Shown here in pieces: positions 17,481 to 57,204 of a stretch of 64,000 nucleotides of DNA. Every line of letters begins with the position of its first letter. Positions within the stretch are counted from its first letter, which is position 1. Below the pieces are notes generated by a model, which was not told the DNA's origin, searched no databases, and saw nothing but the letters and a program-made list of their open reading frames with translations. The stretch comes from an uncultured bacterium (GTDB lineage Bacteria > Patescibacteriota > Minisyncoccia > Phycocordibacterales > GWA1-40-21), in the NCBI GenBank assembly GCA_963804975.1, contig CAWDSG010000002.1, forward strand, positions 208,991-272,990. Reading direction: 5' to 3'. Both the position numbers and the translations under genes were made by a program.

Positions 17481-19247
17481 CTATTTCCTATTTTCTTTTT
17501 CTTCTTTTATTTTTTTCAAAAAATCTTCAAGTTTCATCTGGCCGAGCGCTCCGCGGGCGCGCGATTCCACGGAAATCTTTTTCGCCTCAATATCTTTGTC
17601 GCCGATGATGATTGTGTAAGGAATTTTCATATTTTTTGCATCCCTGACTTTTCCGCCCATATTGCCTTCATTCGTATCGCAATCAACTCTGAAGCCGGCA
17701 TTTTTCAATTCCTTTGCAATTTTTTCCGCATGAGAATTGTGATTTTCCCTGACAGGCACAATTTTTATCTGAACGGGCGAAAGCCAAAGAGGAAAGTTGC
17801 CGGCATAGTGTTCTATGAGAAAGCCGACAAATCTTTCATGAGTTCCAAGCGGCGCTCTGTGGATGCAAAGCGGCGTTTCTTCTTTTCCTTCTTTATTTAT
17901 GTAGGTTAAGCCGAATCTTTTCGGCACCGCAAAATCCACCTGGTTTGTAGCGAGCGTGAATTCTCTGCCAATAGCGCTCCAAACCTGAACATCAATTTTC
18001 GGCCCATAAAATGCGGCTTCATTCGGTACTTCTATAAAAGGAATTTTTGAATCAACCAAAACTTTTCTGACCATTTTTTCCGTTTTCTCCCAAAGTTTCG
18101 GCTCGTTTACGAATTTTTCCCCGAGTTTTTTCGGGTTGTGAGTGGAAAATCTCATCACATATTTATCAATGCCGAATATCTTGAAATATTTCAAATACAT
18201 ATCGTTGACCGCTCTGAATTCATCCGCAAATTGTTCCTCAGCGCAATATATGTGAGCATCGTTCATGGAAAGCATCCTGACTCTCATAAGTCCGAAAAGC
18301 TCGCCAGATTTTTCATTCCTATAGCATGTTCCATATTCTGCAAGACGAATAGGCAAATCTTTATAGCTTCTTCTTTCACTGCCAAAAATTTTGTGATGAT
18401 GAGGGCAATTCATTGCCTTCAAGTAGTATTTCACGCCTTCAAGTTCCATTGGCGGATACATACTTTCGGCGTAATATGGCAAATGTCCGCTTGTGATATA
18501 CATTGATTCTTTTGCGATATGAGGAGTTCTGACTCTGACATATCCGCCATCACACTCGGTTTCTTTGGCCAGATTTTCCAGTTCATCAACTATTACCGTG
18601 CCGTTTGGAAGCCAAAGCGGAAGTCCTGGGCCGACATCTTCATCAAACATAAAGATTTTTAATTCTTTGCCAAGTTTTCTGTGGTCTCTTTTTTCCGCTT
18701 CTATCATTTGCTTTTCATAAACATCCAATTCTTCTTTTGTATTAAAAGCCAAACCGTAAATTCTGGTAAGCATTTTATTTTTCTCGTTTCCTTTCCAGTA
18801 TGCGCCGGCGATTCTTTCCAGTTTCCATGCGCTGTTTTTCAAATCGTCGATTTTTTCCACATGAGGTCCGGCGCAAAGATCCGTAAAATTTCCGGAAGTG
18901 TAAATCGTAATGACTTGTCCGTCTTTTGCATATTCTTTTATGAGTTCAAGCTTGTATGGATTTTCGGCAAAAAGTTTTTTTGCATCTTTTTCCGAAATTT
19001 CCGCTTTGTCAAAAGATTTCCACTTTTTCAAAAGTTCCCGCATTTTTTGTCCAATCCTTCCTAGATCCTTGTCGGTGATAGGTGTTGTAAAACCTGCCTG
19101 GCCGGTAGGCAGGTCAAAGTCATAATAAAAGCCGTTGTCTATCGCCGGGCCTGTGGCGATTTTCACGTCCGGATATAATTCCGTAACAGCCGCGCCAAGC
19201 AAATGGGCGAGGGAATGGCGTATTTTGAAAATCTTATTTTCATTCAT
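17481..19247 (-). CDS. thrS: threonine--tRNA ligase (lacks N-terminal TGS domain)
   Basis: 'FKIRHSLAHLLGAAV' zinc/editing-domain start; class II motifs in the catalytic core; C-terminal anticodon-binding domain. The start is ambiguous: TTG at 19274 or ATG at 19247. Carries the in-frame 23-nt element. Confidence 0.9.
   Translation of the reverse strand: MNENKIFKIRHSLAHLLGAAVTELYPDVKIATGPAIDNGFYYDFDLPTGQAGFTTPITDKDLGRIGQKMRELLKKWKSFDKAEISEKDAKKLFAENPYKLELIKEYAKDGQVITIYTSGNFTDLCAGPHVEKIDDLKNSAWKLERIAGAYWKGNEKNKMLTRIYGLAFNTKEELDVYEKQMIEAEKRDHRKLGKELKIFMFDEDVGPGLPLWLPNGTVIVDELENLAKETECDGGYVRVRTPHIAKESMYITSGHLPYYAESMYPPMELEGVKYYLKAMNCPHHHKIFGSERRSYKDLPIRLAEYGTCYRNEKSGELFGLMRVRMLSMNDAHIYCAEEQFADEFRAVNDMYLKYFKIFGIDKYVMRFSTHNPKKLGEKFVNEPKLWEKTEKMVRKVLVDSKIPFIEVPNEAAFYGPKIDVQVWSAIGREFTLATNQVDFAVPKRFGLTYINKEGKEETPLCIHRAPLGTHERFVGFLIEHYAGNFPLWLSPVQIKIVPVRENHNSHAEKIAKELKNAGFRVDCDTNEGNMGGKVRDAKNMKIPYTIIIGDKDIEAKKISVESRARGALGQMKLEDFLKKIKEEKENRK
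19093..19115 (-). repeat. in-frame palindromic 23-nt element (encodes DLPTGQAG) in thrS
   Basis: The plus strand reads cctgcctggccggtaggcaggtc; in gene sense this is gacctgcctaccggccaggcagg. Confidence 0.9.
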
Positions 19248-19379
19248 ATTTTCATTGTAGCAAAAATACGGCAAAAATCTATACCGGCGATTTGACTAAA
19301 ACAGGGAAACTGATAGTATAAAATCTGGATTTCCAAGAGGTCAGAGGCCTCTGAAACTAGTTTTTCAAGGAGTATAGAA

Positions 19380-19607
19380 ATGAAAAGGATAAATAAAAAT
19401 CCGATAGTGCTTTTGGTAACTAATACTGATGTTCTTCGTAAACGCCAAGTCATACGCCGTGTTCTCAATACGCCACCCCATGTTTTAAAAGAGGCAATGC
19501 AACTTAGTTTAACGGTTAAAAATTGCTTCTTTGAGGTGCTGAATGATAAGGTTTTTGCCAAAGAAGAAAAGCTCATAGCTCATATTAAAGCGGCCTTGGA
19601 AGCTTAA
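19380..19607 (+). CDS. hypothetical small protein
   Basis: 75 aa; AAGGAG RBS 8 nt upstream; followed by a bidirectional terminator. Confidence 0.3.
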   Translation: MKRINKNPIVLLVTNTDVLRKRQVIRRVLNTPPHVLKEAMQLSLTVKNCFFEVLNDKVFAKEEKLIAHIKAALEA

Positions 19608-19616
19608 TGATTTTTT

Positions 19617-19650
19617 AAAAACCGCCCAGTTTCAATCGGGCGGTTTTTTA
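19617..19650. terminator. bidirectional terminator between the 19380 ORF and dnaE
   Basis: aaaaaccgcccag-tttcaat-cgggcggtttttt. Confidence 0.75.
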
Positions 19651-22600
19651 CTCCAGCACCTTCAACCTCTCAATAATCAAGCTTGTTTCTCCGTTTCGGT
19701 CGGAAATTTTGCAGACGGCGGCTATGCATTTATCCGTTTCAATCGCACTCCTGAATTGCTCATAGGTTCTCGGAAAAACCACTGCTTCAATCGAGCCGGT
19801 AAAATCGGCAATTTTTATGAAAGCCATCTGCTCGTTGTTTTTTGTCGTTATGACTCTCACATCTTCAATAATTCCGCCGATCGGCTTTCCGTTGTCGATC
19901 TCACTTCTTACATCTTTTGTTTCCTCTTTTATTTTTTTGATATTTATCGGCTGTTTTTCCAAAATCGTCCTGAATTTATCCAAAGGATGTCCGGAAATAT
20001 AAAGTCCGAGCAATTCTTTTTCCCAGGCGAGCCTGTCTTTCATGCTTGCAGCTTCTGCCGGTTCAAGGCGGAAATTTTCATAAACGCCGCCTGCCTGACT
20101 AGTAAGCAGGCCAGAAAAAACTCCGAAAAGCGAATCTTGATTTTGATTTTTATTGCCGACTTCTTTGTTGTATTTGAGCATATTTTCAATATTCGCCAGT
20201 AGCTGGCCTCTTTCTCCAAACCCTGCCTGGCCGGCAGGCAGGTCATCCATCGCGCCGGATTTTATGAGAGCTTCAAGCGAACGTTTATTCAGATTCTTGC
20301 TCACAATCCTTTCAAGGAAATCAGAAAGCGATTTGAATTTGCCCCTGTCCAATCTTTCTCTGATAATCGCTTTGGAAATATCTTCGCCGAAATTCTTGAT
20401 TGTCATAAGGCCGAAGCGGATTTTGTCCCTATTCGGTCCTGTGTCGTGCGGCGAGACCTCGGGAGTTTTTACCACGGTAAAATCGCTGTAGCTTTCGTTT
20501 ACTGACGGAGGCAGGACGGGAATGCCCATCTTTTTGCAGTCCGAAATAAATTCGCCGATTTTTTCCACATCGCCGGAATCGGCGGTGAGGACGGCAGACA
20601 TATAAATGGCAGGGAAATTCGCTTTCATATATGCTGTCTGATATGACACGCGCCCGTAGCTTGCCGCATGAGCTTTGTTGAAACCGTATCCCTGGAAAGG
20701 TTCAAACAAATTCCACAATTCCTCGGCTTTTTTTTGTGTCATCTTTCCGTGTTTTATGCATCCTTCCACGAATTTGATATGCTGCCTGATCATTTCTTCC
20801 GGAATTTTCTTGCCGACGGCTTTTCTGAATTTATCCACTTCGCCCCAAGTGTAGCTGGCAACCTCAATGGCCGTCATAAGCAAATCATCCTGATAAACCA
20901 AGACGCCGAATGTGGTATCCAAATAATCTTTCATTTCTGGATGTAGATATATTGCGGGTTTTTCGCCGTGCTTCCTAGCAATATACTCATAAATGTTGTT
21001 CATCGGGCCCGGACGGTAAAGCGCGACCATTACATTGATATCGTGTATATTTGTCGGCCTCAATTCTTTAAGCGCTTTGGTCATGCCTTGGCCGTTGAGC
21101 TGAAAGACCCCTACGGTTTCTCCGCGTGCAAGCATGGCAAAAGTTTTTTTGTCATCAAGCGGAATTTTTTCTATGTCTATATTTATGTTTTCAATTACTT
21201 TCACGCGATGTACGGCATCGGCAAGGACCGAAAGATTCCTGATCCCCAGAAAATCAAATTTCAAAAGTCCGACGCCGTCTTCTCCGACCGAATCCATATC
21301 GTATTGAGTGATGATTTTATTTCCTTCTTTCTGGTCGTATTGGAGAGGGACATAATTTATAAGCGGTTCCGGAGCTATCACAACTCCGGCGGCATGGACG
21401 CTGATGTGCCTTGCGCACCCTTCGATTTTTTTCGCCATATCCATAATTATTTTTGCATCTTTTTCCTTGTCATATATTTCTTTGAGCTCTGGAACAATTT
21501 CAAGCGCTTTATCTATTGTCATTGGTGAACCTTGAGCCCCAAAAGGTATGAATTTGGCGATTTTGTCGGCAAGCGGCAAAGGATAACCCATAGCGCGAGC
21601 CACATCCCGCACGGCTCCGCGTGCCATCATAGTGCCGAAAGTGCCGATCTGCGCCACATTGTCTTTGCCATATTTTTCCCGCACATAATCAATGACTTCA
21701 TCGCGCCTGTTGTCCGCAAGATCCATGTCGATATCCGGCGCCGAAGGCCTTTCGGGATTCAGAAATCTTTCAAAAGGAAGCTTGTATTCGATCGGGTTGA
21801 CTTTTGTGATGCCGGTAAGATAGGAAACCATGGAGCCGGCTACGGAACCTCTGGTATTTGAAAAAATATTATGCTCAGCCGCATATTTTAAAAGATCGGC
21901 CACAACCAAAAAATATTGAGAATATTTTTTATTCTTGATGACCTCAAGCTCATATTCAAGCCGCTCTATGACTTCTCTCGAATGATGCAGATCTCTTTTG
22001 TCTATTCCTTCGTAAGCGATCCTTTCAAGCTCTTCATCGTAGGAAAGCTCGCTTTCCACGACAAATTTCGGAAAAACCCACGCGGCTTTGCCGAGAACAA
22101 TTTCCAAATTGCACATATCGGCGATTTTTACCGAATTCCCGAGAGCATTCGGTTCATTTTTAAAATATTTTTCCGCCGTCTCTGCCGATATGAATGAAAA
22201 ATTGTCGGTATCCCCGTTTAAATCTCTGTCGGAAAAATCTGAATGCGAATTCACTTGCACAAGCGTATCTCGCGCCGCTTTATCCTCCGGTTTCAGATAA
22301 TAGACATCATGTGCAGCCACAAGCTCAGTATCGGTTTTTTCCGCCAATTTCTTGATTTTTTCTTTGAGCTCAAGCTGGCCTTCTATTTCGGGATGATGCG
22401 TTATTTCCAGAAAAAAATTGTCCTTGCCAAAAACTTTTTTGTACCAATCGACTATTTTTTCCGCTTTTTCACTATCGCCATTTTTTAAAGCAACGGAACT
22501 TTCTCCGGAAAAATGAGGCATAATGCAGACGAGTCCGTCTTTATATTTTTCCATGAGCTCCTTATCGATTCTTGGCTTGTAATAAAAACCTTCAAAAAAT

Positions 22601-28491: not shown

Positions 28492-30762
28492 ATGTACCTA
28501 AAAGGCATAGAAATTTCCGGTTTTAAATCATTTGGCAAGAAAAGTTCGCTTGATTTCAGCGCGCCTATTTCTGCGATAGTCGGCCCGAACGGCTCCGGCA
28601 AATCAAATGTAGCCGAAGCTTTTTCTTTTGTGCTTGGCGAGCAGTCCATAAAATCTCTGCGTGGGAAAAAGGCTGAAGATCTTATTTTTAACGGCGGAAA
28701 AGAGGCATCTCGTTCAAACCGCGCTTCCGTAAAGCTCATTCTTAACAATGTCCAAAGAATTCTCAATATAGATTTTGACGAAGTTGCCATTGAGCGCGTG
28801 GTCAATCGCGATTCCACAAGCGAATATATTATAAATGGAAGTCCGGTTCGTCTTAAAGATATCATTGAACTATTATCCGGTGCGCATATCGGAGCTTCAG
28901 GACATCAGATAATTTCCCAGGGCGAGGCGGACAAGGTTCTGAACTCAAATATCCGCGAAAGAAGAGACATGATAGAAGACGCTTTAGGCCTTAAAATTTT
29001 TCAATACAAAAAAGAAGAAAGCGAAAGGAAACTTGAAAAGACGGAAGAAAATATAAAACAAGTTGAATCACTCCGAAGAGAAATCGCTCCGCACATCCGT
29101 TTTCTAAAAAAACAGGTGGAGAAAATAGAGAAAACGTTTGAAATGAAAAACAATTTGACTTCCATGTATCACGAATATTTCAGACGCGAGGAAGAATATA
29201 TAAATTATGAGAAAAAAACGATTGCCGGAGAAAAAGAGCCGCTTTTAAAAACAAAAGAAAAACTCGAAAAAGATTTGGCGGCGGCTAGAGAAACTCTCAA
29301 CAAGTCATCCCTGAAAGACAAAAAAAGCGACGAAGTGATGAAGGTTGAAAGCAAGCTAAAGGATGCGAGATTTTCAAAAGATAATCTGACGAGGAGCATC
29401 GGCCGCATTGAAGGGGAAATTTCCTCGCTTCTTAAAATTCTGAAAAAACAAAACGAGGAAAGCGCAAGTGCCCAGAAAAAAACAGTGGAACTGTCACAGG
29501 TGGAAAATATCGCAAAACAGATAAATCTGGAAATAGACGATGCCTTGGAAAGCTCGGACATTTCAAAAATAAAAGAGATTTTCAAATCCATAAAAAATAT
29601 TTTGAAAGATTTTATTGAAAGGCACAAAGAAAGCGAGAGCAAGGAAGCGGCGAGCGAATTGGAAAATGAGATAAAAACGCTTGAAAGCGAGAAAAAGGGC
29701 TATGAAGTGAAAATAAATGAGGCAAACGAACTTGAAACCAAGCTTTTGGAGGAATATTCCTTTCTTAAAAACGAAATAGAAAAGGAAAAGGATTCCAATA
29801 GAGATGCGGAAAAGACAATGTTTCGGATAGTTGCCGAGCAAAATGATATTCGCGGAAAAATATCTGCACTTGAGAGCAGAGAGGCAAGATTGAGGCACGA
29901 CGAGGAAGAATTTCAGAGAGAACTTCAGGAAGGATCTGTTCTTATCGGCGTTTCGGCCTTGCATTATAAGGATTTCCTGCCTACCGGCCAGGCAGGTTGG
30001 CCTATAGAAGATCGTCAGGTGCAAGAAGACAGAAGGCGAGCGTTGGAAAAAATAAAAATCCGCCTTGAGGACGCGGGAATTTCCGGCAGCGATGAAGTCG
30101 TGAAAGAATACAAGGAAACTACAGAAAGAGACAGTTTTTTGGAGCGCGAGCTTGAAGACCTGATAAAGTCATCGCAATCACTGAAAGATCTGATAACGGA
30201 GCTTGGCGAAAAACTTACGACCGAATTCAAGAACGGCGTTGAAAAAATAAACAAGGAGTTCCAAAGATTTTTCATGGCGATGTTCGGCGGAGGCAACGCT
30301 TCGCTTTCTGTCGTAAAAGAAAAAAAGAAGAAAAAATCCGAAACGGAATTGCCGTCCACTTTAGCTGAAGATGAAAGTGAGGACCTTGAGGAAGAAGAGG
30401 AATTGGAAGAGGGGATTGATATTGAAGTTTCTCTGCCGAGGAAAAAAATAAAAGGGCTGATGATGCTCTCCGGAGGTGAGCGGGCGCTTACATCCATCGC
30501 TCTTCTTTTTGCGATTTCTGCAGTAAATCCGCCTCCGTTTATCGTGCTTGATGAGACGGATGCGGCGCTTGATGAGGCCAACTCAAAAAAATACGGCGAT
30601 ATGATTGCCGAGCTTTCAAAATATTCCCAGCTTATTCTCATTACCCACAACAGGGAAACAATGTCCCGCGCCGGAGTTATCTACGGCGTGACAATGGGTT
30701 CTGATGGCGTTTCGCGGCTCCTTTCAATCCAGTTTGAAGAAGCAGTGCAAGTAGCAAAATAG
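28492..30762 (+). CDS. smc: SMC-like chromosome segregation ATPase (short, reduced hinge)
   Basis: 'MYLKGIEISGFKSFG', Walker A GPNGSGKSN, long coiled coil, C-terminal signature 'LSGGERALTSIALLFA' and D-loop 'FIVLDETDAALD'; 756 aa versus ~1150 typical; the in-frame 23-nt element sits in the mid region. Confidence 0.7.
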   Translation: MYLKGIEISGFKSFGKKSSLDFSAPISAIVGPNGSGKSNVAEAFSFVLGEQSIKSLRGKKAEDLIFNGGKEASRSNRASVKLILNNVQRILNIDFDEVAIERVVNRDSTSEYIINGSPVRLKDIIELLSGAHIGASGHQIISQGEADKVLNSNIRERRDMIEDALGLKIFQYKKEESERKLEKTEENIKQVESLRREIAPHIRFLKKQVEKIEKTFEMKNNLTSMYHEYFRREEEYINYEKKTIAGEKEPLLKTKEKLEKDLAAARETLNKSSLKDKKSDEVMKVESKLKDARFSKDNLTRSIGRIEGEISSLLKILKKQNEESASAQKKTVELSQVENIAKQINLEIDDALESSDISKIKEIFKSIKNILKDFIERHKESESKEAASELENEIKTLESEKKGYEVKINEANELETKLLEEYSFLKNEIEKEKDSNRDAEKTMFRIVAEQNDIRGKISALESREARLRHDEEEFQRELQEGSVLIGVSALHYKDFLPTGQAGWPIEDRQVQEDRRRALEKIKIRLEDAGISGSDEVVKEYKETTERDSFLERELEDLIKSSQSLKDLITELGEKLTTEFKNGVEKINKEFQRFFMAMFGGGNASLSVVKEKKKKKSETELPSTLAEDESEDLEEEEELEEGIDIEVSLPRKKIKGLMMLSGGERALTSIALLFAISAVNPPPFIVLDETDAALDEANSKKYGDMIAELSKYSQLILITHNRETMSRAGVIYGVTMGSDGVSRLLSIQFEEAVQVAK
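29974..29996 (+). repeat. in-frame palindromic element (FLPTGQAG) in the smc-like gene
   Basis: ttcctgcctaccggccaggcagg. Confidence 0.9.
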
Positions 30763-31933: not shown

Positions 31934-33946
31934 CTATTCAACTACCTCATAATCCATCTGCTTTCTGTCTAGGTCTGCGCTGACAAGCTTGATTTTTACC
32001 TTTTGTCCTAGCGAAAAAGTTCTTTTTGTTTTTTCGCCGACAATGGCGTATTTTTTGGGATTGAAGACATAAAAATCGTCTCCGAGTGAAGAAAGCTTAA
32101 TCATTCCTTCGGCTCTGGTTTGCGTATCTTCCGCATATATGCCCCATTCGGTGACGCCGGTAATAAGTCCGTCAAAAATTTGCCCGACTTTATCCTGCAT
32201 AAATTCCACCTGCTTGTATTTTCTTGCGTCTCGCTCGGCTTCCGAAGCTTTTATTTCTTGGTCGGTGGAATGTTGGCAAGCTTTCTCATAAAAAGCCAGA
32301 TTTTTTTCCTGAACGGAATTTTTTGAAAGAATGTTTCCGAGAATTCTGTGCACCAAAAGGTCCGGATATCTTCTGATAGGCGAGGTGAAGTGCGCGTAAT
32401 ATTCAAACGCAAGTCCGAAATGGCCGATATTTTTTACCGAATAAATCGCTTTGGCCATTGAGCGCACTGCGGCAGTTTTTACCAAAGCTTCCTCCGCCTT
32501 TCCTTCCACTTGAGCGAAAAGCGCCTGCATATCCTTGCCGGTGATGCTTCCGTTTTTGCCGATGATAAGCTCATGCCCCAGTGCTTTTACAAACACCGAA
32601 AGTTCGGTGATCTTTTCTCTGTCCGGAAAATCGTGTATCCTGTACGGAATGGGGAAAAGTTTCCCGGATTTCTTTTCAAATTTATAAACAAACTCGGCGA
32701 CTTCTTTGTTTGCAAGAAGCATAAATTCCTCCACGAGTTTGTGGGTATCAAGCCATTCTTTTTTGTAAATTCTTATCGGTTTGCCGCTCTGGTCAAGCTC
32801 AAAAGCGATCTCTTCCTGCTCAAAATCAATCGCGCCTTTTTGCCATTTTTCTTTTCTCAATATTTTTGCAATTTTGTTTAGAGTATCCAGTTCCTCAAAG
32901 AATCGCCCGGATTTTTGATTGATAATTTCCTGCGCGCTTTCGTATGAAAATCTTTTATCCGATTTGATGACAGTTCTTCCGAACCATTTTGAATGCACTT
33001 TTGCCCACGCATCCATTTCAAATATCGCGGAAAATGTGAGTTTATCTTCATTTTCATTCAAACTGCAGAGATTGTCGGAAAGCTCAAAGGGAAGCATCGG
33101 TATTGTTCTGTCAGGCAAATACACCGAACATCCTCGATTGTAGGCCTCCTTATCAAGTTCACTTCTTTCTTTTACATAATAAGATACATCGGCAATATGA
33201 ATACCGATTTCAAAATTTCCATTTTGAAGTTTTTTGAAAGATATGGCGTCGTCAAAATCTTTTGCGTTTTTCGGGTCAATGGTAAAAGTGAGTGTGTTTC
33301 GCAAATCTTTTCTATTTGCAATTTCTTCTTTTGGAATATTTCTATTTTGTTCAAAAATTACTTTTGATTCTCTGGAAGCACTCTCGGGAAATTCAATATT
33401 AAAACCTTTATCAATGGCAATAGAATTCATTTCCGTGGAGTTTTCGCCCTTTTTTCCAAGAACGGCTATGATTTCTCCTTCGGCAAAATTTTGCATTGGA
33501 ACCCACTTCGTAATTTTTATTTTTACTTTATCTTCGTCTTTTGCACTGCCTATTTTTTCACGTGGAATTTTTACGGACATCTTTAATTTCTTGTCATCTG
33601 GCGCAAAAGCAATTCCTTTTCCTGCCTGGCCGGCAGGCAGGTCTGAAATTAAAACAGTGCCGACAAAATAACTTTTTGCTCTCTCTATAACTCTCACAAC
33701 TTCTCCGCCCGATAATCCGGATTTGCTTTTTCCGTAGATTTTTACTTCAACTTTGTCTCCGGACATCGCGGAGTTCAAATCTCTCGCGGATATTTCAGCC
33801 TCAACATCTCCTTTTTCAGCCAAAAAATAGGCGATATTGCCTCGTATGGATTTTATCGTGCCGATAAATATTTTACTTTTTCCATTTTGTCCGGATTTTT
33901 CGTGGAGATTTTTTCTATCTCTTCTGAATCTTTTATAGTTTTTCAT
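31934..33946 (-). CDS. rnr: ribonuclease R (RNB family 3'-5' exoribonuclease)
   Basis: N-terminal cold-shock/OB, RNB domain ('HIADVSYYV', 'YLPDRTIPMLP'), C-terminal S1; carries the in-frame 23-nt element near the N-terminus. Confidence 0.85.
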   Translation of the reverse strand: MKNYKRFRRDRKNLHEKSGQNGKSKIFIGTIKSIRGNIAYFLAEKGDVEAEISARDLNSAMSGDKVEVKIYGKSKSGLSGGEVVRVIERAKSYFVGTVLISDLPAGQAGKGIAFAPDDKKLKMSVKIPREKIGSAKDEDKVKIKITKWVPMQNFAEGEIIAVLGKKGENSTEMNSIAIDKGFNIEFPESASRESKVIFEQNRNIPKEEIANRKDLRNTLTFTIDPKNAKDFDDAISFKKLQNGNFEIGIHIADVSYYVKERSELDKEAYNRGCSVYLPDRTIPMLPFELSDNLCSLNENEDKLTFSAIFEMDAWAKVHSKWFGRTVIKSDKRFSYESAQEIINQKSGRFFEELDTLNKIAKILRKEKWQKGAIDFEQEEIAFELDQSGKPIRIYKKEWLDTHKLVEEFMLLANKEVAEFVYKFEKKSGKLFPIPYRIHDFPDREKITELSVFVKALGHELIIGKNGSITGKDMQALFAQVEGKAEEALVKTAAVRSMAKAIYSVKNIGHFGLAFEYYAHFTSPIRRYPDLLVHRILGNILSKNSVQEKNLAFYEKACQHSTDQEIKASEAERDARKYKQVEFMQDKVGQIFDGLITGVTEWGIYAEDTQTRAEGMIKLSSLGDDFYVFNPKKYAIVGEKTKRTFSLGQKVKIKLVSADLDRKQMDYEVVE
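33621..33643 (-). repeat. in-frame palindromic 23-nt element (DLPAGQAG) in rnr
   Basis: The plus strand reads cctgcctggccggcaggcaggtc. Confidence 0.9.
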
Positions 33947-34027: not shown

Positions 34028-34477
34028 ATGTTAATAATAAGATTACAAAGAAAAGGCAGAGTGCACGAACCGACTTTTCGCATAGTTGTCACCGATTCAA
34101 AATTCGGGGTAAAATCCGGCAAACCTGTCGAGGTTATCGGCTCTTATGATCCAAGAAAAGGAAAAGGCAATAACAGCGTAGATGGAGAAAGAGTGAAATA
34201 CTGGATATCAAAAGGAGCACAAGTTTCCGATACGGTATATAATTTTATGATAGACCAGAAAGTTCTTACAGGGAAAAAGATAAATGTACTTCCCAAGAAT
34301 AAAATAATAAACGCAAAGAAAGCCAAAGACCTGCCTACCGGCCAGGCAGGAGCGGAAGCGGCGGCAAAAGCTTCAAAACCGGATTTGACAAGCTCACCGC
34401 AAGAAAAGCCGGCAAAAGAAATGCCAGCTGCAGAAGCAAAAGTAGAACCGGCTCCAGAACCGGCCGTTGTTCAATAA
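34028..34477 (+). CDS. rpsP: 30S ribosomal protein S16 with C-terminal extension
   Basis: 'MLIIRLQRKGRVHEPTFRIVVTDSK' S16 N-terminus; A/K/E-rich tail hosting the in-frame 23-nt element. Confidence 0.85.
   Translation: MLIIRLQRKGRVHEPTFRIVVTDSKFGVKSGKPVEVIGSYDPRKGKGNNSVDGERVKYWISKGAQVSDTVYNFMIDQKVLTGKKINVLPKNKIINAKKAKDLPTGQAGAEAAAKASKPDLTSSPQEKPAKEMPAAEAKVEPAPEPAVVQ
34328..34350 (+). repeat. in-frame palindromic 23-nt element (DLPTGQAG) in the rpsP tail
   Basis: gacctgcctaccggccaggcagg. Confidence 0.9.
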
Positions 34478-37926: not shown

Positions 37927-37958
37927 AAAGAGGCGCGCCCGGAGGGCGCGCCTCTTTC
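37927..37958 (+). terminator. GC-clamp hairpin after the RRM gene
   Basis: aaagaggcgcgccc-ggag-gggcgcgcctcttt. Confidence 0.8.
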
Positions 37959-41431: not shown

Positions 41432-41504
41432 AATAAAAAATTTTCGTAATCTTACTTCACATTTTTATCTGGCGTTTGTCAAATATTTGTGATATAATTC
41501 CAGT

Positions 41505-44524: not shown

Positions 44525-44638
44525 GCAAATGGCGAGGCGCTTCACCGAAAAAGCACGGATATTTTTCTGCTGAAAAATTCCTCGAGCTTGCGCCGTCGCT
44601 CTCGCTAGGCTTTTTCAATGAAGCGCCTCGCCATTTGC
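44525..44638. repeat. hairpin-embedded intergenic repeat, copy D (between convergent dedA and LOG genes)
   Basis: Perfect 20-bp arms gcaaatggcgaggcgcttca/tgaagcgcctcgccatttgc; the core gcacggatatttttctgctgaaaaattcctcgagcttgcgccgtcgctc is ~85% identical to the core of copy C. Confidence 0.75.
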
Positions 44639-47245: not shown

Positions 47246-47258
47246 ACCTCAAAACAAA

Positions 47259-47279
47259 CCCCGAGGTTTAACCTCGGGG
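47259..47279 (+). terminator. intrinsic terminator after tgt, identical hairpin to 15597-15617
   Basis: ccccgaggtttaacctcgggg. Confidence 0.75.
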
Positions 47280-47355
47280 GAATTGTCAACAATTAAAAAT
47301 AAAAAAACCGGCTTGCAAATGGCGCAGGCCGGTAATTACATAAAAGACGAAAGTT

Positions 47356-48216: not shown

Positions 48217-50265
48217 ATGAGCAAATTCAAGATAAAAGCAGAATATAAGCCGGCGGGAGATCAGCCACAGGCCATAAACGAGCTTGTGGATGGCATAGAA
48301 GCGGGTCTGAATAAGCAGACCCTTTTTGGCGTTACCGGAAGCGGGAAAACTTTCACCATCGCAAATGTCATAGAAAAAACTCAAAAGCCGACGCTTGTCA
48401 TTGCTCACAACAAAACTCTCGCTGCCCAGCTCGCCCAAGAATACAAAGAATTTTTCCCCGACAACGCCGTGCATTATTTCGTTTCGTATTACGACTACTA
48501 TCAGCCGGAGGCCTATATGCCGATCACGGACACTTATATTGAAAAAGAAGCGATGATAAATGAGGAGATCGACCGCCTTCGCCACGCTTCCACGCAGGCA
48601 TTGCTGACAAGAAAGGATGTGATCATTGTTGCCTCGGTTTCCTGCATTTACGGCTTGGGTTCTCCGGAAGATTATGAAAAGGTAAATATCAAACTCAATA
48701 TCGGCGACAAAACCACACGGCAGGATTTGATTAAAAAACTTATAAATGTTCATTTTAAAAGGACAAACTCGGACATTACCGCTGGCTCGTTCCGCGCAAT
48801 CGGCAATGCTATTGAAGTGATGCCGGTAAATGAAAAAATTCTCATTAGAATTGACCTCGCGGATGACCAGATAAAAAATATCTCGCGGATTGATTCGGTT
48901 TCAAGAAAGCTCGTGAAAGACAGTTTGAAATCAGTTTTCATTTTTCCGGCAAAACATTTTATTACGGATAAGGACCAGCAAAAGCGGGCGATAGCGAGCA
49001 TAAAAATTGAGCTTGAAGAGCAATTGAAAAAGCTGAAAAAGGAAGGCAGGCTTCTTGAAGCGGAAAGATTGCGAAGAAGAACCGCGCACGACTTGTCGCT
49101 CATAAGAGAAGTTGGTTATTGCAACGGCATTGAAAATTATTCAAGGCATTTTTCGGGGAAAGTTGCAGGAGAACCGCCGGATACCTTGCTTTCATATTTT
49201 CCAAAAGATTTTCTGACAGTAATAGACGAATCGCATGTCACGGTTTCGCAGATAAGAGGAATGTATGCCGGCGATGCTTCCAGAAAAAAGACACTTATTG
49301 ATTATGGTTTCAGATTGCCGTCTGCAAAAGACAACAGACCGCTCAAGTTTGAAGAATTTGAAAAGAAAGTCGGACAGACGATTTACACTTCCGCTACGCC
49401 GGGAGATTATGAAAGAGAAAATTCCAAGAAGATTGTGGAACAGATTATCAGGCCGACGGGTTTGATAGACCCGGTTATGGATATAAAACCGATTACCGAG
49501 GTAAAAGGTCGTAATAAATCGCAGGTTTATGATTTTATTGATGAAGCGCTGAAAGTTATAAAAAATGGGGGAAGAGTGATAGCAACAACGCTTACAAAAA
49601 AGATGGCGGAAGATTTGAGCGAATATCTGAAAGACCTGCCTACCGGCCAGGCAGGGAAAGGTAAAATCAAAGCGGAATATTTGCACAGCGAAATAAAAAC
49701 GATAGACAGAATAGATATTTTGACGAATTTCCGCAAAGGCAAATTTGATTGTATTGTCGGCGTGAACCTTTTGAGAGAGGGTTTGGATTTGCCGGAAGTG
49801 GAGTTTATCGGAATTCTTGATGCGGACAAGGAAGGATTTTTGCGTTCAGACACTTCGCTGATACAGACCATCGGCAGAGCTGCGAGAAATATTGCAGGCC
49901 GAGTGGTGCTTTATGCAGACCGAATTACCGGCTCAATTGAAAGGGCAGTGGATGAGACAAATAGACGAAGGGAAAAACAGATTGCTTACAACACAAAGCA
50001 TGGCATTACTCCAAAAACGATCGTCAAAAAGATCCACGATATTACCGAGCATATGCGAAGCGACCACGACAGAGCTGTTGCCGAACTTGTCAAAATTGAC
50101 GAGCAAATGGCAGAAAAAAGTCCCGCAAAATTGATTAAGCAAAAAGAAATTCAAATGAACGCCGCTGTGAAAATCCTGGATTTCGAATCCGCCGCGATTT
50201 TAAGGGATGAAATAGCAATATTAAAGAAACGACCAGAAACCAAACCTACAAAAGTAACAATCTAA
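48217..50265 (+). CDS. uvrB: excinuclease ABC subunit B
   Basis: 'GDQPQAINELVDG', Walker A 'GVTGSGKTFT', beta-hairpin, C-terminal UVR domain 'AAILRDEIAILKK'; in-frame 23-nt element at 49633-49655. Confidence 0.95.
   Translation: MSKFKIKAEYKPAGDQPQAINELVDGIEAGLNKQTLFGVTGSGKTFTIANVIEKTQKPTLVIAHNKTLAAQLAQEYKEFFPDNAVHYFVSYYDYYQPEAYMPITDTYIEKEAMINEEIDRLRHASTQALLTRKDVIIVASVSCIYGLGSPEDYEKVNIKLNIGDKTTRQDLIKKLINVHFKRTNSDITAGSFRAIGNAIEVMPVNEKILIRIDLADDQIKNISRIDSVSRKLVKDSLKSVFIFPAKHFITDKDQQKRAIASIKIELEEQLKKLKKEGRLLEAERLRRRTAHDLSLIREVGYCNGIENYSRHFSGKVAGEPPDTLLSYFPKDFLTVIDESHVTVSQIRGMYAGDASRKKTLIDYGFRLPSAKDNRPLKFEEFEKKVGQTIYTSATPGDYERENSKKIVEQIIRPTGLIDPVMDIKPITEVKGRNKSQVYDFIDEALKVIKNGGRVIATTLTKKMAEDLSEYLKDLPTGQAGKGKIKAEYLHSEIKTIDRIDILTNFRKGKFDCIVGVNLLREGLDLPEVEFIGILDADKEGFLRSDTSLIQTIGRAARNIAGRVVLYADRITGSIERAVDETNRRREKQIAYNTKHGITPKTIVKKIHDITEHMRSDHDRAVAELVKIDEQMAEKSPAKLIKQKEIQMNAAVKILDFESAAILRDEIAILKKRPETKPTKVTI
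49633..49655 (+). repeat. in-frame palindromic 23-nt element (DLPTGQAG) in uvrB
   Basis: gacctgcctaccggccaggcagg. Confidence 0.9.
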
Positions 50266-50344
50266 TTGAAGTTGTTTGTACTGTGGATAACTAAGTGTTG
50301 CAAAAAAGGGTATAATAGGCACGTAAAAGGATCTGAATTTTTTC

Positions 50345-50373
50345 TTGCTAATTAAAAATATTTGTGTTATAAT
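50345..50373 (+). promoter_or_regulatory. sigma70-type promoter TTGCTA-17-TATAAT abutting the Panacea gene ATG (leaderless-type)
   Basis: The -10 box ends 6 nt before the ATG at 50380; no SD. Confidence 0.55.
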
Positions 50374-50379
50374 CAAGGC

Positions 50380-50922
50380 ATGAAAATACCCATCACAAAA
50401 CTTAAGGCAATATTGTTGTATTTTTATACTTATACAGATTCACGACTTCTTGGAAAAGTGAAGTTAATGAAACTGTTTTATTTTCTTGATTTTACTCACA
50501 TAAAAAAATATGGTGTTCCTGTAACATTTGATACTTATGTAAAATTGGAACACGGACCAATACCTTCCACAATAAAAAACCTTATCGATACTGCAGATGA
50601 TGATATTGATAACTCATTCTTATCAGATACAATTTCTATTGAAATGTCTGAAGAAAATAAAATGCACCGTATTGTTGGATCAAGAAAATTCAATGACAAA
50701 GATAGCAAATTATTCTCTGAAAATGAATTAAAAATTCTTCAGGAAGTATGTTTACGATTTGGAGATAAAAATACAGGATATATTGAAAAAGCTTCTCATG
50801 AAGAAGCTCCTTGGAAATTATCAAACATGTTTGATAATATTTCTTATTCTTTGGCGGCAAAAGATACTGATAGTTTGATTTCAGAAGAACAAATAAAATT
50901 TTTTGAAGAAATAACAAAATAA
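50380..50922 (+). CDS. Panacea-domain (DUF4065, SocA-like) antitoxin-type protein
   Basis: 'KLMKLFYFLDFTHIKKYGVPVTFDTYVKLEHGPIPSTI' matches the DUF4065/Panacea core. The track uses TTG at 50362; the first ATG is 50380, directly after TTGCTA-17-TATAAT. Confidence 0.65.
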   Translation: MKIPITKLKAILLYFYTYTDSRLLGKVKLMKLFYFLDFTHIKKYGVPVTFDTYVKLEHGPIPSTIKNLIDTADDDIDNSFLSDTISIEMSEENKMHRIVGSRKFNDKDSKLFSENELKILQEVCLRFGDKNTGYIEKASHEEAPWKLSNMFDNISYSLAAKDTDSLISEEQIKFFEEITK

Positions 50923-51316: not shown

Positions 51317-51365
51317 CTATAAATGGTAAGGTTGAACTTTGCCATTTATAATAATTTTGATTTAT

Positions 51366-51397
51366 TTGCCAAACTTTAAAACTAAGAATAGTATAAT
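51366..51397 (+). promoter_or_regulatory. TTGCCA-17-TAGTAT(AAT) promoter of module 51405
   Basis: Conserved 'atttgccaaa' -35 context. Confidence 0.5.
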
Positions 51398-51404
51398 TTA
51401 ACAT

Positions 51405-51956
51405 ATGTATATATCAACTTGGATCATTATAATTATAGTTATTGTTGGAATATATTTTTACCGTAAATCCAAAAAGCAAAATAAGAGTATATCAGAAAAT
51501 CAATTGCTAACCGCTGATGAAATGTGGGTACGAGCAGAAGTATATATGGAAAGAGTAATGAGAAAAAGTCCTAATATAGAAAAATATCTGCAAGATGAAA
51601 GAGATATGGTAAAAGCTATGGAAAGAGACATGGTACGCCTTCGGGAACGTTTTAAACATGATCCAAAAAAACAACTTGAGATTGCACAAGGTTGGATGGA
51701 TTATTCTCATGCAGTAGAAAGGATAAAATTTTCTAGAGAGTTATTAGATGTTGATATGGAACATAATGCTTATGATTCGCATGATGAACGAACTAAGGAA
51801 GCGTGGATTACTATACCAGAAATTGCAAAACGAGTTGAAAATATACTTGGAAAAGATTCGAGTTCTAAGTTAGTGCATGACAGGCTTTATAGAAATGCAG
51901 AAGCTACAGGAGAGGTTGTTACTGATTTTGTTCTTAAAAATAAAAATAAATCTTAA
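51405..51956 (+). CDS. membrane-anchored hypothetical protein
   Basis: N-terminal TM (WIIIIIVIVGIYFY), charged helical remainder; own TTGCCA-17-TAGTAT promoter abutting the ATG. Confidence 0.3.
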   Translation: MYISTWIIIIIVIVGIYFYRKSKKQNKSISENQLLTADEMWVRAEVYMERVMRKSPNIEKYLQDERDMVKAMERDMVRLRERFKHDPKKQLEIAQGWMDYSHAVERIKFSRELLDVDMEHNAYDSHDERTKEAWITIPEIAKRVENILGKDSSSKLVHDRLYRNAEATGEVVTDFVLKNKNKS

Positions 51957-52042: not shown

Positions 52043-52058
52043 CGTGCGGTTTTTTTAT

Positions 52059-52087
52059 TTGCCAAAAATACAAACTCGGCGTAGTAT
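52059..52087 (+). promoter_or_regulatory. TTGCCA-17-TAGTAT promoter of module 52133
   Basis: tttatttgccaaaaatacaaactcggcgtagtat. Confidence 0.5.
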
Positions 52088-52932: not shown

Positions 52933-53000
52933 GGCAAACTCCTTTCGTTTTCAATCTATTTTCAGTATAAACAAATAATAATATTTGTCTAGATTTAAAT

Positions 53001-53837: not shown

Positions 53838-53886
53838 TTGCCAAAACTCTTATTTTCTTGACTTTACTAAATATTAATGATACTAT
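53838..53886 (+). promoter_or_regulatory. promoter region of module 53925 (TTGCCA context; TTGACT-17-TACTAT)
   Basis: aaatttgccaaaactcttattttcttgactttactaaatattaatgatactat. Confidence 0.4.
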
Positions 53887-53924
53887 TGCTTTAGAGTAAA
53901 ACATCCGCCACGAGGGAGGATCAC

Positions 53925-54371
53925 ATGTTATCTGATAAATCAAATAAGATTGATTTGTCTGAGGAAATTATGTGTGCATTGATATTTGCAAGAAGCATAA
54001 TACGGAAATTTTTTGGCCGAAACATTGTCTTTAAACAAGCGACTATTTATCAAGAAAACAAAGAGGTTGATAGGTATGAAGTCGAAATCAAAACGGTAAT
54101 AAAAACTGAAGATAGCTGCAACCCATTTCTCTTTGGAGTTGTATTTGGTTTTACGCTTGCCGGCACGAATGGCTTTTCGCCTGAACCAAATGGCGAAGTA
54201 GCAATGCGGTTGGTGTACGGTATGGGGAAAAAGGATGAAGACCTTTCTTTCGTTTATAATCAAGGAGGGTTTAATTTCTCCGACAACACACGAAAACTTT
54301 TGAATGAACTACGCGCAAAGATAGGTTTACCAGAAATAGATTTGCCGGAATTCATTCAAAACCCATCTTGA
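53925..54371 (+). CDS. hypothetical protein
   Basis: 148 aa; GGGAGG RBS; own promoter and terminator. Confidence 0.3.
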   Translation: MLSDKSNKIDLSEEIMCALIFARSIIRKFFGRNIVFKQATIYQENKEVDRYEVEIKTVIKTEDSCNPFLFGVVFGFTLAGTNGFSPEPNGEVAMRLVYGMGKKDEDLSFVYNQGGFNFSDNTRKLLNELRAKIGLPEIDLPEFIQNPS

Positions 54372-54434
54372 TAAATATCGACAACGCCCACGAAAAGCCC
54401 AGTGCTTCTCGCGGGCTTTTTGTTTGTAAAATAT

Positions 54435-54463
54435 TTGCCAAATTTATAAACTAAGAGTAATAT
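54435..54463 (+). promoter_or_regulatory. TTGCCA-17-TAATAT promoter of uvrA
   Basis: atatttgccaaatttataaactaagagtaatat. Confidence 0.5.
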
Positions 54464-54513
54464 GCTCGTACATAACCCTATGGGGCAAACCCGAGGGTAA
54501 TTTGGCTTTATAT

Positions 54514-57204
54514 ATGAAAACAACATTTAACGAAAAGTCACCAAAAATCATTGTAAAAGGGGCGAGAACTCACAATCTTAAGAATATTACTGTTGAGATG
54601 CCTCGCAATAAGATGATCGCCATTACAGGGATTTCCGGCTCAGGGAAGTCGTCTTTTGCATTTGACACTATTTTTGCCGAAGGCCAGAGGCGATATGTTG
54701 AATCGCTTTCTTCTTATGCAAGGCAATTTTTGCATCAGATGCAGAAGCCGGATGTGGACGAAATAGTCGGGCTTTCGCCTGCAATTTCAATAGACCAAAA
54801 ATCCCGTTCAAACAATCCTCGTTCAACCGTGGCGACTATCACGGAAATTTACGATTATTTGAGAATTTTATATGCAAGAATCGGCAAACCGCACTGCCTT
54901 GTCTGCGGACGCGAAATTAAAAAACTTTCAAAAGAGGAAATTTTGGAAACAATTATTCATACTGTTACGCATATCAAATCTCCGCAGAAATCCAAAGAAG
55001 TGCTCGGGGTGAAAGTAACAAGCGACCCCGGTGAAGTAAAAAACGCACTACTTCACGGGGCAAGCAAGATCAGAATTTTTTCTCCGGTTGTTGTCGGCAG
55101 AAAAGGGGAGTACTACCAGCTTCTTTACGATTTGATAGAAAAGGGCTATGAATACGTAAAAATAGACGGCGAGCTTAAAAAGCTCCGCAACCAGATAATT
55201 CTCGCCAAAAACAAAAAGCACGATATTGATGTGCTTGTTGATGAATTTTACATAAGCGAGTTTATTTTGACAAAAACTGGCACAAGCAAGGCAGTTGAAG
55301 CGGATAGGCAAAGATTTGAAAATGTAAAAACCCGACTTTCAGACGCGGTGGAAAAAGCCATTGAGGAATCAAAAGGGCTTTTGAAAATTGAAACGCCTGA
55401 AGACCTGCCTACCGGCCAGGCAGGAACCAAAATGATCTCCGTTAAATTTATGTGCCCTTACGATGGCTATTCATATCCAGAAATAGAACCGCGGCTTTTT
55501 TCATTCAATTCGCCATATGGCGCATGTCTAACTTGCCACGGCCTCGGCACAAAAGATTTTTGGACTGACGAACCTTGCGAAACGTGTCATGGCAAGAGAT
55601 TGCGAGAAGAAGCGCTGCATGTACTTATTGGAGATATAAATATCGTGGAATATACCGCTAAATCAATCGGAGATGCGAAAAATTTTATGGAAAATCTGAA
55701 ATTGACCGAGCTTGAACAGGAAATTTCCCGGGTAATTCTGAAAGAAATTGACTCACGGCTCCAATTTATGATGGATGTCGGCATTGAATATCTTTCGCTT
55801 GATAGACGGGCAAATACTCTTTCAAACGGCGAAGCGCAAAGAATCCGCCTTGCTTCGCAGCTCGGCTCCGGCCTTGTCGGCGCTCTTTATGTGCTGGATG
55901 AACCGACAATCGGCTTGCATCAGAGAGACAACGACAAGCTTATAAAAACATTGATAAATCTGCGCGATCTGGGAAATACGATTCTTGTGGTTGAACACGA
56001 CGAAGATACGATGTTTGCTTCGGATTATATCGTTGATATCGGTCCCGGTGCCGGAGTGCACGGAGGAAAAGTCGTTGTTTCCGGATATATGGACGAGCTT
56101 TTGACCGCGAAAGAAAATAAATCCGGTTCAATCACGCTTGATTATCTTCGCGGTGATATGAAAATTGAAATGCCGAAAAAAAGACGCGATCAAGACAAGG
56201 GAAAAATAAAAGTGCGAGGCGGAAAAATTTTCAATATAAAAAATATGAATGTTGAAGTGCCGCTTGGAAAATTTGTGACTATCACGGGAGTGTCCGGCTC
56301 GGGAAAGTCATCTCTGGTATATGAGATTTTGCACAAAAACCTGCGGGCACGGCTTGAAAGAAAATTTCGCAACGCAAATACTTACAATTGCGAGTCATTT
56401 GCCGGCTCGGAATATGTTTCAAGGACGATTATGATAGACCAGTCGCCGATAGGAAGGACTCCTCGTTCAAATCCGGCAACTTATATCGGTGCGTGGACTT
56501 TTATCCGCGATATGTTTGCTATGACGGCGATGGCGCGAGAAAGAGGCTGGGGAGCAAACAGATTTTCATTTAACGTAAAAGGCGGAAGATGCGAAGCATG
56601 CCAAGGAAACGGAACGATTGAAGTGGAAATGCACTTTTTGCCGACGATTTATGTGCCGTGCGACATTTGCCATGGAAAAAGATTTACCAAGGAGACATTG
56701 GAAGTGAAATACAAAGGGAAAAATGTCCATCAAGTGCTTGAAATGACTGCAGAGGAAGCTTTGGAATTTTTTGCCGATTTGCCGGCGGTTTACGACAGGT
56801 TGAAATGCGTGAATGAAGTCGGACTTGGATATTTGAAACTCGGGCAATCTGCCACGACGCTTTCCGGCGGAGAAGCGCAGAGAGTGAAAATCGCTTCGGA
56901 ACTTTACAGGCCGGATTTGCACAAGACAATTTATTTTTTGGACGAGCCGACAATCGGGCTTCATTACGAAGATGTAAAAAAACTTATTGAAATTTTACAG
57001 AAGCTTGTTGATAACGGAAATACTGTCGTAGTTATTGAGCACAATATGGATCTGATAAAAAATTCCGATTATGTGATAGATATCGGGCCGGAAGGCGGAG
57101 ACAGGGGCGGGGAAATTGTCGCCAAAGGGACGCCGGAGAGTGTAGCGGAAAATGAAAAGAGTTATACTGGTAAATATTTGAAGAGAATTTTGAAGAGAAA
57201 ATAG
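54514..57204 (+). CDS. uvrA: excinuclease ABC subunit A
   Basis: '[14 protein letters not shown]', two ABC modules (GISGSGKSS..., GVSGSGKSS...), zinc fingers; the track start TTG at 54502, and the ATG at 54514 aligns with the canonical UvrA N-terminus; in-frame 23-nt element at 55402-55424. Confidence 0.95.
55402..55424 (+). repeat. in-frame palindromic 23-nt element (DLPTGQAG) in uvrA
   Basis: gacctgcctaccggccaggcagg. Confidence 0.9.

Follow-up and report, generated by a model that had tools for sequence, protein, structure and literature searches.

Several families of short palindromes and repeat-bounded elements invite comparison with the element described here, a GC-rich 21-bp palindrome present in seven intact copies and one decayed copy in a 64-kb window of an uncultured Paceibacterota genome. 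The window is the whole stretch of DNA that was analysed (64,000 nucleotides; assembly GCA_963804975.1, contig CAWDSG010000002.1, positions 208,991 to 272,990 of the forward strand). Every copy is inserted in frame in a protein-coding gene, and the 21-mer is probably the smallest member of a family whose largest members encode a GIY-YIG nuclease.

Rickettsia palindromic elements (RPEs), which Ogata and colleagues are said to have described in 2000, are reportedly about 100-150 bp long, inserted in frame and translated as extra surface segments. Neither a transposase nor an autonomous partner is known for them. RPEs are mentioned in PMC1779305. Both systems consist of palindromes inserted in frame in open reading frames (ORFs) and translated. 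However, going by the RPE description, RPE-1 to RPE-8 are of ~100-150 bp and occur in Rickettsia only, whereas the present element has 21 nt and occurs in many phyla. Furthermore, unlike RPEs, the 21-mer has its termini, phase and target in common with nuclease-coding modules.

In size, the element falls in the class of SDR4-6 of heterocystous cyanobacteria, hairpin-forming sequences of 21-27 nt that Elhai and colleagues reportedly presented in 2008 as 'Very small mobile repeated elements'. These too are mobile hairpins, often nested in other repeats and with no known mobiliser. They differ in sequence and taxa and are chiefly non-coding, with no codon-phase rule or nuclease-coding relatives reported. 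Yeast mitochondrial GC clusters are likewise short GC-rich mobile palindromes of AT-rich genomes (30-50 bp, often with a TAG target, occasionally in frame). Unlike the element, they are organellar, belong to other sequence classes and have no nuclease-coding relatives.

Repetitive extragenic palindromes (REP/REPIN) are short GC-rich non-autonomous hairpins without target duplication that are believed to owe their movement to a domesticated RAYT (Y1) enzyme acting in trans (PMC3116915, which also cites Elhai et al. 2008; PMC3733652). The element resembles them as a short GC-rich hairpin without target duplication. In contrast to the extragenic REPs, it lies in a coding sequence (CDS) in 8/8 cases here and in about half of the cases across phyla. 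The GTAG/CGTC tag of REPs is absent: the flanks are GA and N, with no tag among 116 copies. Unlike the element, REPs are also usually doublets and specific to a species or genus, and they adjoin a RAYT gene. Miniature inverted-repeat transposable elements (MITEs) are non-autonomous derivatives of terminal-inverted-repeat transposons (PMC3184786). The likeness here extends to terminal inverted repeats common to a coding parent, an internal-deletion size series, bursts of identical copies and insertion polymorphism. Unlike MITEs, the element makes no target-site duplication, its putative parent is a GIY-YIG nuclease in frame with the host gene and not a DDE transposase, and its 18-33-nt forms are far below the usual MITE size.

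The full nuclease modules recall inteins and in-frame homing endonucleases, being selfish nuclease ORFs in frame in conserved genes whose presence varies between close homologues. However, they have no Hint or splicing domain and match GIY-YIG only, the insert stays in the protein, the mini-element amounts to 7 residues, and linkers are encoded by the GC-rich terminal inverted repeats of the modules. DNA uptake (DUS/USS) and Chi-like signals are set apart by their high density across related genomes; the element has 0 copies in 725 kb of relatives. Full-text literature searches with the DNA and peptide strings, and others on the concept, gave no description. PMC1564403 (Dunin-Horkawicz et al. 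2006) alone notes one GIY-YIG insertion, an Slx1-like domain 'recently inserted' in HsdR MCA0838, and it describes no repeats, miniature derivatives or mobility model.

A 21-nt palindrome in seven genes of the window

The original prediction placed a palindrome of 23-24 nt in seven genes, in one orientation and one frame. An exact search with the 23-mer GACCTGCCTRCCGGCCAGGCAGG recovered all seven copies at the predicted coordinates (six exact; the smc copy has TT for GA), and none of 100 dinucleotide-preserving shuffles of the window contained a match. All seven translate on the sense strand in the frame of the host ORF as (D/F)LP(T/A)GQAG, in agreement with the predicted (D)LP(T/A)GQAG apart from the smc copy, which begins with F. 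By Pfam, the host proteins are ThrS, DnaE, SMC, RNase R, S16, UvrB and UvrA. The predicted length has to be revised: because orthologues lack precisely 7 codons and the D/E codon of the host is retained, the inserted unit is the 21-nt GC-rich palindrome CCTGCCTRCCGGCCAGGCAGG, and the preceding GA belongs to the host Asp/Glu codon as a target preference, not to the element.

The A variant accounts for 5 of the 7 intact copies, adding LPTGQAG each time. In thrS (19093..19113, minus strand) the peptide falls within FYYDFD|F (host codon GA|T), where 11 related loci have an exact 7-residue gap. In smc (29976..29996, plus strand) it lies in a variable coiled-coil/hinge loop between DF and WP (host codon TT|T; relatives read KDFWPT...), and in rpsP (34330..34350, plus strand) in the C-terminal tail (host codon GA|A; the related locus L138 reads NKAKE-------AEE). 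The uvrB copy (49635..49655, plus strand; host codon GA|G) follows a helix (residues 461-472) and precedes a strand (486-489), and the uvrA copy (55404..55424, plus strand; host codon GA|A) corresponds to an exact 7-residue gap in relatives L205 and L206. The G variant adds LPAGQAG in the HhH/OB linker region of the dnaE C-terminus (20222..20242, minus strand; host codon GA|G, Glu becoming Asp), where more than 20 related loci read GAMDE-------FGERG, and in rnr between the OB and CSD2 domains of RNase R (33621..33641, minus strand; host codon GA|A; relatives ISQ-------KG).

The predicted count of seven stands for intact copies, and overlooks an eighth, decayed one in dnaE (20090..20110, minus strand; CCTGCTTACTAGTCAGGCAGG, LLTSQAG; host codon GG|C), where the closest relative, L128, reads FDG-------GATENF. 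First flagged by a repeat finder at 68% identity, this copy differs from the A variant by 4 substitutions, all GC>AT transitions, and has the phase and orientation of the others. Scored at <=6 mismatches, shuffled windows gave 0-3 matches each; we estimate that ~0 are expected at <=4 mismatches. Three of the 4 changes fall in the loop, and the remaining one still allows a G-U pair in RNA.

The predicted hairpin is real, with a stem of 7 bp in the A variant and 8 bp in the G variant (dG -7.1 and -9.5 kcal/mol as DNA, -11.7 and -14.5 kcal/mol as RNA, respectively), and the GC-rich element stands out against a window G+C of ~39-40%. Simple arithmetic with a uniform one-in-six null gives a probability of ~2e-5 that all 7 copies fall in one of the six frame and orientation classes. 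The prediction also stressed that no copy is intergenic. All copies are indeed in CDSs, which is uninformative given that 89% of the window is coding (P = 0.41 for 8/8 copies). Chance or low complexity is ruled out as a source of the repeats by the 0 shuffle matches together with a phase bias of 2e-8 in other genomes (described below). It should also be noted that two look-alikes in the window, LPTRLG in Tgt (46940) and LPDG (60503), are native conserved motifs and not the element. Rfam 15 at the gathering threshold gave no family at the element, three tRNAs being the only matches in the window.

Clean, phased and recent insertion

For comparison we used 80 syntenic loci (~725 kb) from related metagenomic Paceibacterota, the candidate phyla radiation group to which the UvrB relatives belong. 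Alignment of the host proteins with orthologues, as the original prediction had proposed, gave an exact 7-codon gap in close orthologues at all eight sites of the window. In smc, BLAST misplaces the gap; the DNA reads TT[C...GG]T TGG CCT vs DFWP in the relatives. Among 120 aligned UvrB orthologues, 117 have no insert at the element site, most of them reading LKE-KG-VKAE. An ancient conserved motif is thus ruled out by its absence from these 117 orthologues and from all related loci.

At the DNA level, the uvrB site reads GA[C CTG CCT ACC GGC CAG GCA GG]G, where the 21 nt split a Glu codon after its position 2, so that the host Glu becomes Asp and a new Gly is added. No target-site duplication is seen at the reconstructed empty sites, which have gained exactly 21 nt. 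Insertion between codon positions 2 and 3 holds for 8/8 copies. The split host codons of the 7 intact copies are GAT, GAG, GAA, GAA, GAG, GAA and TTT; 6/7 start with GA, as do 13% of codons, supporting the suspected target preference (p = 3e-5). With the decayed copy included, the base pair 5' of the insertion is GA in 6 cases, GG in 1 and TT in 1. GA has a frequency of 13% at codon positions 1-2, 4.5% at 2-3 and 7% at 3-1.

The 725 kb of relatives contain 0 copies at <=3 mismatches, compared with 7 intact copies in the 64-kb window, a contrast that indicates a recent burst in the lineage. The element has thus multiplied recently in this Paceibacterota genome, and copies later decay. The inserts sit in coil between the UvrB helix and strand, or in tails and variable loops. 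The original prediction had asked whether the peptide always lies in a surface loop; the AlphaFold2 model of UvrB places its insert in low-confidence coil (pLDDT <50 at residues 478-481).

Nuclease-coding modules with the same termini

A UvrB orthologue of 782 aa (P0059) contains a whole GIY-YIG domain in frame, bounded by LPAPRPG...RTRQAG. The DNA of this Paceibacterota module reads AA[C CTGCCTGCGCCGCGG...CGCGGCAGGCAGG]T; its ends can also be written AA[C CTGCCTGCGCCGCGGCCGG ...~270 nt... CCGGACGCGGCAGGCAGG]T, and form imperfect terminal inverted repeats. A second full module, in a Bacteroidales HsdM-like gene, reads GA[C CTGCCGGCGCC...GGCAGGCAGG]T, and a third, adjoining a DNA methylase gene, reads like the other two. 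All three full modules for which we have DNA (L118, L121 and L122) have the first and last bases and the codon phase of the 21-mer, again without duplication. The family termini, CCTGCCTG(C) at the start and (G)CAGGCAGG in inverted orientation at the end, are found in 21-mers, in full modules and in 18-, 30- and 33-nt mini-elements.

A search with a module profile against 1.8 billion cluster representatives gave 23,962 matches, of which 159 have E < 1e-30 and thousands lie under 1e-10. The best 150 of the 23,962 are nearly all long proteins (200-1100 aa) in which the ~100-residue module is internal, with boundaries (D)LPAP(R/Q)PG and (T/A)RQAG. Type I restriction specificity subunits (HsdS) make up 68 of 103 long hosts and are interrupted at the conserved ...PQDPND|EPAS...; other hosts include HsdR, HsdM, trigger factor, TatD, QueC, ArgRS, TrmD, pseudouridine synthase, NUDIX and SET proteins. 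The module most often follows D (49%), then G (19%), N (9%) and S (8%), which corresponds to GA > GG > AA 5' of the insertion, the same bias as in the mini-elements.

The sole ORF of the modules is a GIY-YIG nuclease (Pfam PF01541; PDB matches 1ywl, 1zg2 and 4xlg) of the UPF0213/COG2827 and SLX1 type, with no stop codon. A structure model of the module alone, of modest confidence, has the GIY-YIG beta-beta-alpha-beta-alpha-alpha core with unstructured termini.

Many module copies (P0122, P0124, P0127 and others) are publicly annotated as separate 'GIY-YIG nuclease family proteins' of ~127 aa. This is a systematic gene-calling error, because at the DNA level they are in-frame segments of interrupted hosts, such as HsdM in L121. 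Directly upstream of the module-carrying UvrB gene lies a reverse-transcriptase gene (RVT_1, 332 aa; L118 1910-2908), an arrangement present in three independent assemblies.

A size series between mini-elements and modules

Another Paceibacterota UvrB contains, after GA, the perfect 18-nt palindrome CCTGCCTGC|GCAGGCAGG (LPAQAG), which equals two 9-nt module termini joined, and a third Paceibacterota UvrB contains a 15-nt form (GLPGQ). One UvrB codon holds a full module in one lineage and 15-18-nt mini-elements in others. Forms of 19, 20, 22-27, 30 and 33 nt in the fetched loci have constant termini and differing centres, as would be expected if an enzyme recognises the termini only. The 33-nt form (LPAAQGTAQAG, phase 3) is in a gene adjoining a full module, both being on one contig (L122). 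Module-carrying proteins also hold LPAPPSEATRQAG, LPAEASAQAG and RPAPQAG, and a 23-residue internal-deletion derivative stands in tandem with a full copy of the module. The family is thus characterised by constant termini, a centre that varies from 0 to ~15 nt in the mini-elements, a common phase and a purine-purine target on the 5' side, with the largest members reaching ~300 nt.

Paceibacterota UvrB has two insertion hot spots, KN|GGRV and LKE|KG. Depending on lineage, the short GC-rich inserts found there (orthologues P0101, P0108, P0045, P0029, P0109 and P0077) read PSTKLRAG, HTTQAG, AHSTGSGQ, GLPGQ or GLPAQA, and one lineage has the full GIY-YIG module. Some of these inserts may represent other element families or decayed copies.

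The 21-mer across phyla

We scanned a 596-Gb collection, one genome per species, with the pattern CCTGCCTNCCGGCCAGGCAGG. The exact 21-mer is present in at least 117 loci, compared with an estimated ~1 match expected by chance (~20 specified bases). The carriers and copies described here are those among the matches listed. The carriers are mostly Bacteroidota, together with many Patescibacteria lineages, Omnitrophota, Planctomycetota, Acidobacteriota, Ignavibacteria, Gammaproteobacteria, Nitrospirae and others, and several have 2-4 loci per genome. Five are cultured isolates: Sphingobacterium micropteri, Terrimonas sp. R1, Algoriphagus oliviformis, Subsaximicrobium wynnwilliamsii and Allomuricauda sp. 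CP2A. The variable N base is A or G only, and base -1 is a purine in 78% of the cross-phylum 21-mers. One insertion, found in orthologues from two Ferruginibacter species, is common to them by descent.

Of 93 copies in AT-rich loci, 46 are inside ORFs of >=150 aa, and 34 of these 46 coding copies have the codon phase seen in the window, in either orientation (p = 2e-8). In sense the element reads LP(T/A)GQAG, in antisense LPGRQAG. The antisense A variant would read a TAG stop, and among in-phase copies the A variant is 9 times sense and 0 times antisense, compared with 6 and 19 for the G variant. The uniform sense orientation in the window is explained by this asymmetry, because 5/7 copies there are the A variant, which is survivable only in sense. 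The original prediction offered two causes for the constant frame and orientation. The 34/46 in-phase copies, which occur in both orientations, support selection on the translated product; strand-specific (transcription-coupled) insertion is ruled out, since G variants elsewhere are antisense more often than sense.

Host genes across phyla include those for FtsW, GyrB, GyrA, PheT, transketolase, LpxB, LpxK, a GlmU-like protein, MurF, HsdM and UDP-glucose dehydrogenase, among others. Because about half of the copies elsewhere are non-coding, the element is confined neither to genes in general nor to essential ones. Larger genome-specific repeats often enclose the non-coding copies. Viral contigs gave 10 matches for the 21-mer and 25 for the 18-mer; these contigs are mostly GC-rich DNA, so their reading frames are uninformative, and the matches are weak evidence for phage vectors.

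Larger repeats with at least 3 copies per genome embed the 21-mer, for example GAACATCGAATGTCGAA[21-mer]CGCTGAAGAT...TTCGACATTCGGCGTTC, at L070, L087 and L109 (one Bacteroidales metagenome-assembled genome, MAG), at L031, L035 and L104 (one Acidobacteriota MAG) and at L012, L086 and L096. Here the 21-mer is carried along by, or inserted into, other repeats. Variants of 20 nt, lacking one C, were also seen in genomes that carry the 21-mer: CCTGCCTGCCGGCAGGCAGG, a perfect palindrome ~150 nt upstream of the 21-mer of L109, and CCTGCCTGCCGGTAGGCAGG in L018, L039, L070 and L103. Their contexts are apparently non-coding or frame-incompatible, and element lengths not divisible by three seem to be excluded from genes. 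In L099 (5244-5802; Candidatus Komeilibacteria), a 21-mer lies ~100 nt from a stand-alone UPF0213-type GIY-YIG gene, beside a tRNA-like sequence; this is the only close pairing of a 21-mer and a GIY-YIG gene in the 117 loci.

A candidate mechanism and its alternatives

Clean insertions, empty relatives and scatter over many phyla bear out the original prediction of a tiny mobile palindromic element that inserts in frame and resembles RPEs in principle. We think it probable that the 21-bp mini-element is the smallest, non-autonomous member of a family with the GIY-YIG modules and is mobilised in trans by their nuclease. The case for the kinship itself, drawn from sequence and context, is fairly strong. 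Slx1-type enzymes cut branched and stem-loop DNA. In the proposed scheme, the module nuclease would act in trans by recognising the terminal palindrome, which would probably be extruded as a hairpin or cruciform, and could move mini-elements as a transposase moves MITEs. Insertion splits a codon after its second base, in most cases GA|N, and duplicates nothing. Ribosomes would read through, adding the flexible LP(T/A)GQAG in a tolerant loop or tail, and a full module would be translated as an insertion domain of the host protein, its termini supplying the linkers LPAPRPG... and ...RTRQAG. The phase bias has two sources, a GA target that is 2-3x commoner at codon positions 1-2 and purifying selection, as only this phase gives a stop-free Pro/Gly-rich linker. 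In this view, the termini have evolved to encode such a linker in one phase because translation of the full module within a host needs it. The copies would have no function for the host, and they decay by AT-biased mutation.

Several observations weigh against this scheme. The 21-mer agrees with the ends of the three sequenced modules only over the outer 8-9 nt on each side. The 64-kb window contains no GIY-YIG gene, and among the 117 matches listed only 2 of the 8-kb loci around the 21-mer have a GIY-YIG ORF, both ordinary stand-alone genes. GIY-YIG enzymes are hydrolytic nucleases, none of which is known to catalyse transposition. Insertion without duplication 3' of a short motif fits HUH/Y1 chemistry (IS200/IS605, RAYT) just as well. 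There is no demonstrable step that accounts for 21/21 identity across phyla. Finally, the mutations of the decayed dnaE copy give a weak hint of constraint on the stem (p ~0.1).

These points bear most directly on the possibility that the 21-mer is an independent palindromic micro-element moved by another enzyme, of the HUH/Y1 IS200/IS605-RAYT type or other, with the GIY-YIG ORFs being cargo or homing genes nested in palindromes. A hairpin that inserts 3' of a short motif without target duplication is what IS200/IS605 and REP/REPIN would produce (PMC3116915), GIY-YIG genes are rarely near a 21-mer, the centres of the mini-elements are very diverse with the termini alone fixed, and non-coding copies are nested in other repeats. 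However, no Y1 or RAYT gene turned up, although no search aimed at them was made, and REPs, which are extragenic and have a GTAG/CGTC tag (PMC3733652), are unlike the element. Mini-elements and modules moreover have termini, phase, GA/RR target and a UvrB codon in common, for which one machinery is more economical, and we regard a separate mobiliser as unlikely. It is more doubtful still that each 21-mer is the scar of a former full module, left by precise excision or by replication slippage across the paired terminal repeats. The full module of P0059 and the LPAQAG and GLPGQ inserts at one UvrB codon in different lineages, the identity of the 18-mer with two joined 9-nt termini, and deletion derivatives such as LPAPQPGKW|LEGEIKAGRTRQAG would all fit such an origin. 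The window would nevertheless need eight independent full insertions and eight identical deletions in one lineage, 725 kb of relatives have neither modules nor scars at these sites, joining the sequenced module ends does not give the centre of the 21-mer (RCCGGCC), and the identical 21-mer, A variant included, recurs in many phyla.

A function kept by the host was among the alternatives in the original prediction, and could be that of a peptide tag, a cis-acting mRNA hairpin (pausing, stability or an RNase site) or a DNA signal for uptake, recombination or nicking. Frame and orientation are uniform in the window, the RNA hairpin is stable and keeps its stem in the decayed copy, and all hosts in the window act on nucleic acids. 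We nevertheless consider such a function very improbable. Close relatives lack the element at every one of the eight sites, one copy is decaying, copies elsewhere are in both orientations, half non-coding and hosted by unrelated enzymes, there is no Rfam family, and the inserts are in disordered loops or tails. The recent burst followed by decay also tells against such a function. An assembly or sequencing artefact (adapter or chimera) has a negligible probability. An identical short GC-rich sequence in many unrelated metagenome assemblies might raise that concern, but an artefact is ruled out because five cultured isolates carry the 21-mer; the reading frame is also always preserved inside conserved genes, mutated copies and size variants exist, and orthologous genes of two Ferruginibacter species have an insertion in common. 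Mobilisation of the 21-mer in trans by a module nuclease thus remains the explanation we favour. A bolder proposal, which we make tentatively and at somewhat less than even chances, is that the whole family is an unrecognised class of prokaryotic mobile DNA, in which an autonomous GIY-YIG gene (Slx1/UPF0213-like) without its own start or stop is translated by its host and mobilises itself and 18-33-nt mini-elements across phyla.

Implications

If mobilisation by the module nuclease is correct, a 21-bp sequence would be a self-propagating unit that edits essential proteins without breaking them. The lower size limit for mobile DNA would shift accordingly, and such insertion would offer a route by which conserved proteins gain loops and linkers. 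Under the bolder proposal of an unrecognised class, the 18-33-nt mini-elements would be the smallest transposable elements known, and GIY-YIG would join the short list of transposition and homing enzymes that act on repeat-bounded DNA. Identical copies from Patescibacteria to Bacteroidota and Planctomycetota would imply an uncharacterised mobilising activity of broad host range. The nuclease modules, widespread and mostly in HsdS, suggest a new selfish-gene life-style based on expression from inside a host protein. In practice, the inserts confuse orthologue alignments and gene calls, and mark permissive sites in UvrB, ThrS, DnaE, GyrA/B and other proteins. The enzyme could serve as a hairpin- or palindrome-directed DNA tool.

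Other repeats in the window

A second, unrelated family of intergenic repeats (~60-105 nt) has a GC-rich core (G)CTCGCGCCGNCGCGCTC(GC). Copies lie at 836-940 and 6496-6600, at 4788-4847 and 44552-44611, and in the related locus L205 at 3946, 5470 and 6920. One type, with inverted ends ATTTTGAGG...CCCTCAAAAT, has a MITE-like look and is also present in another Paceibacterota genome. The family matches nothing in Rfam, and its fold z-scores range from weak (-0.2) to moderate (-2.9), with -2.88 for the copy at 6496-6600.

Near-identical terminator-like hairpins (AAACCCCGAGGTTTAACCTCGGGG) are found downstream of different genes at 15594-15629 and 47256-47291 (and at 19620-19655), and a perfect 27-nt GC palindrome, AGAGGCGCGCCCGGAGGGCGCGCCTCT, lies at 37929-37955. 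Repeated AT-rich blocks (TTTATTTGCCAAA...TATAAT-like) precede several genes, at 51361-51405, 52054-52087 and 54430-54474 and at 41463-41515 and 50338-50390, and are probably shared promoter or leader modules.

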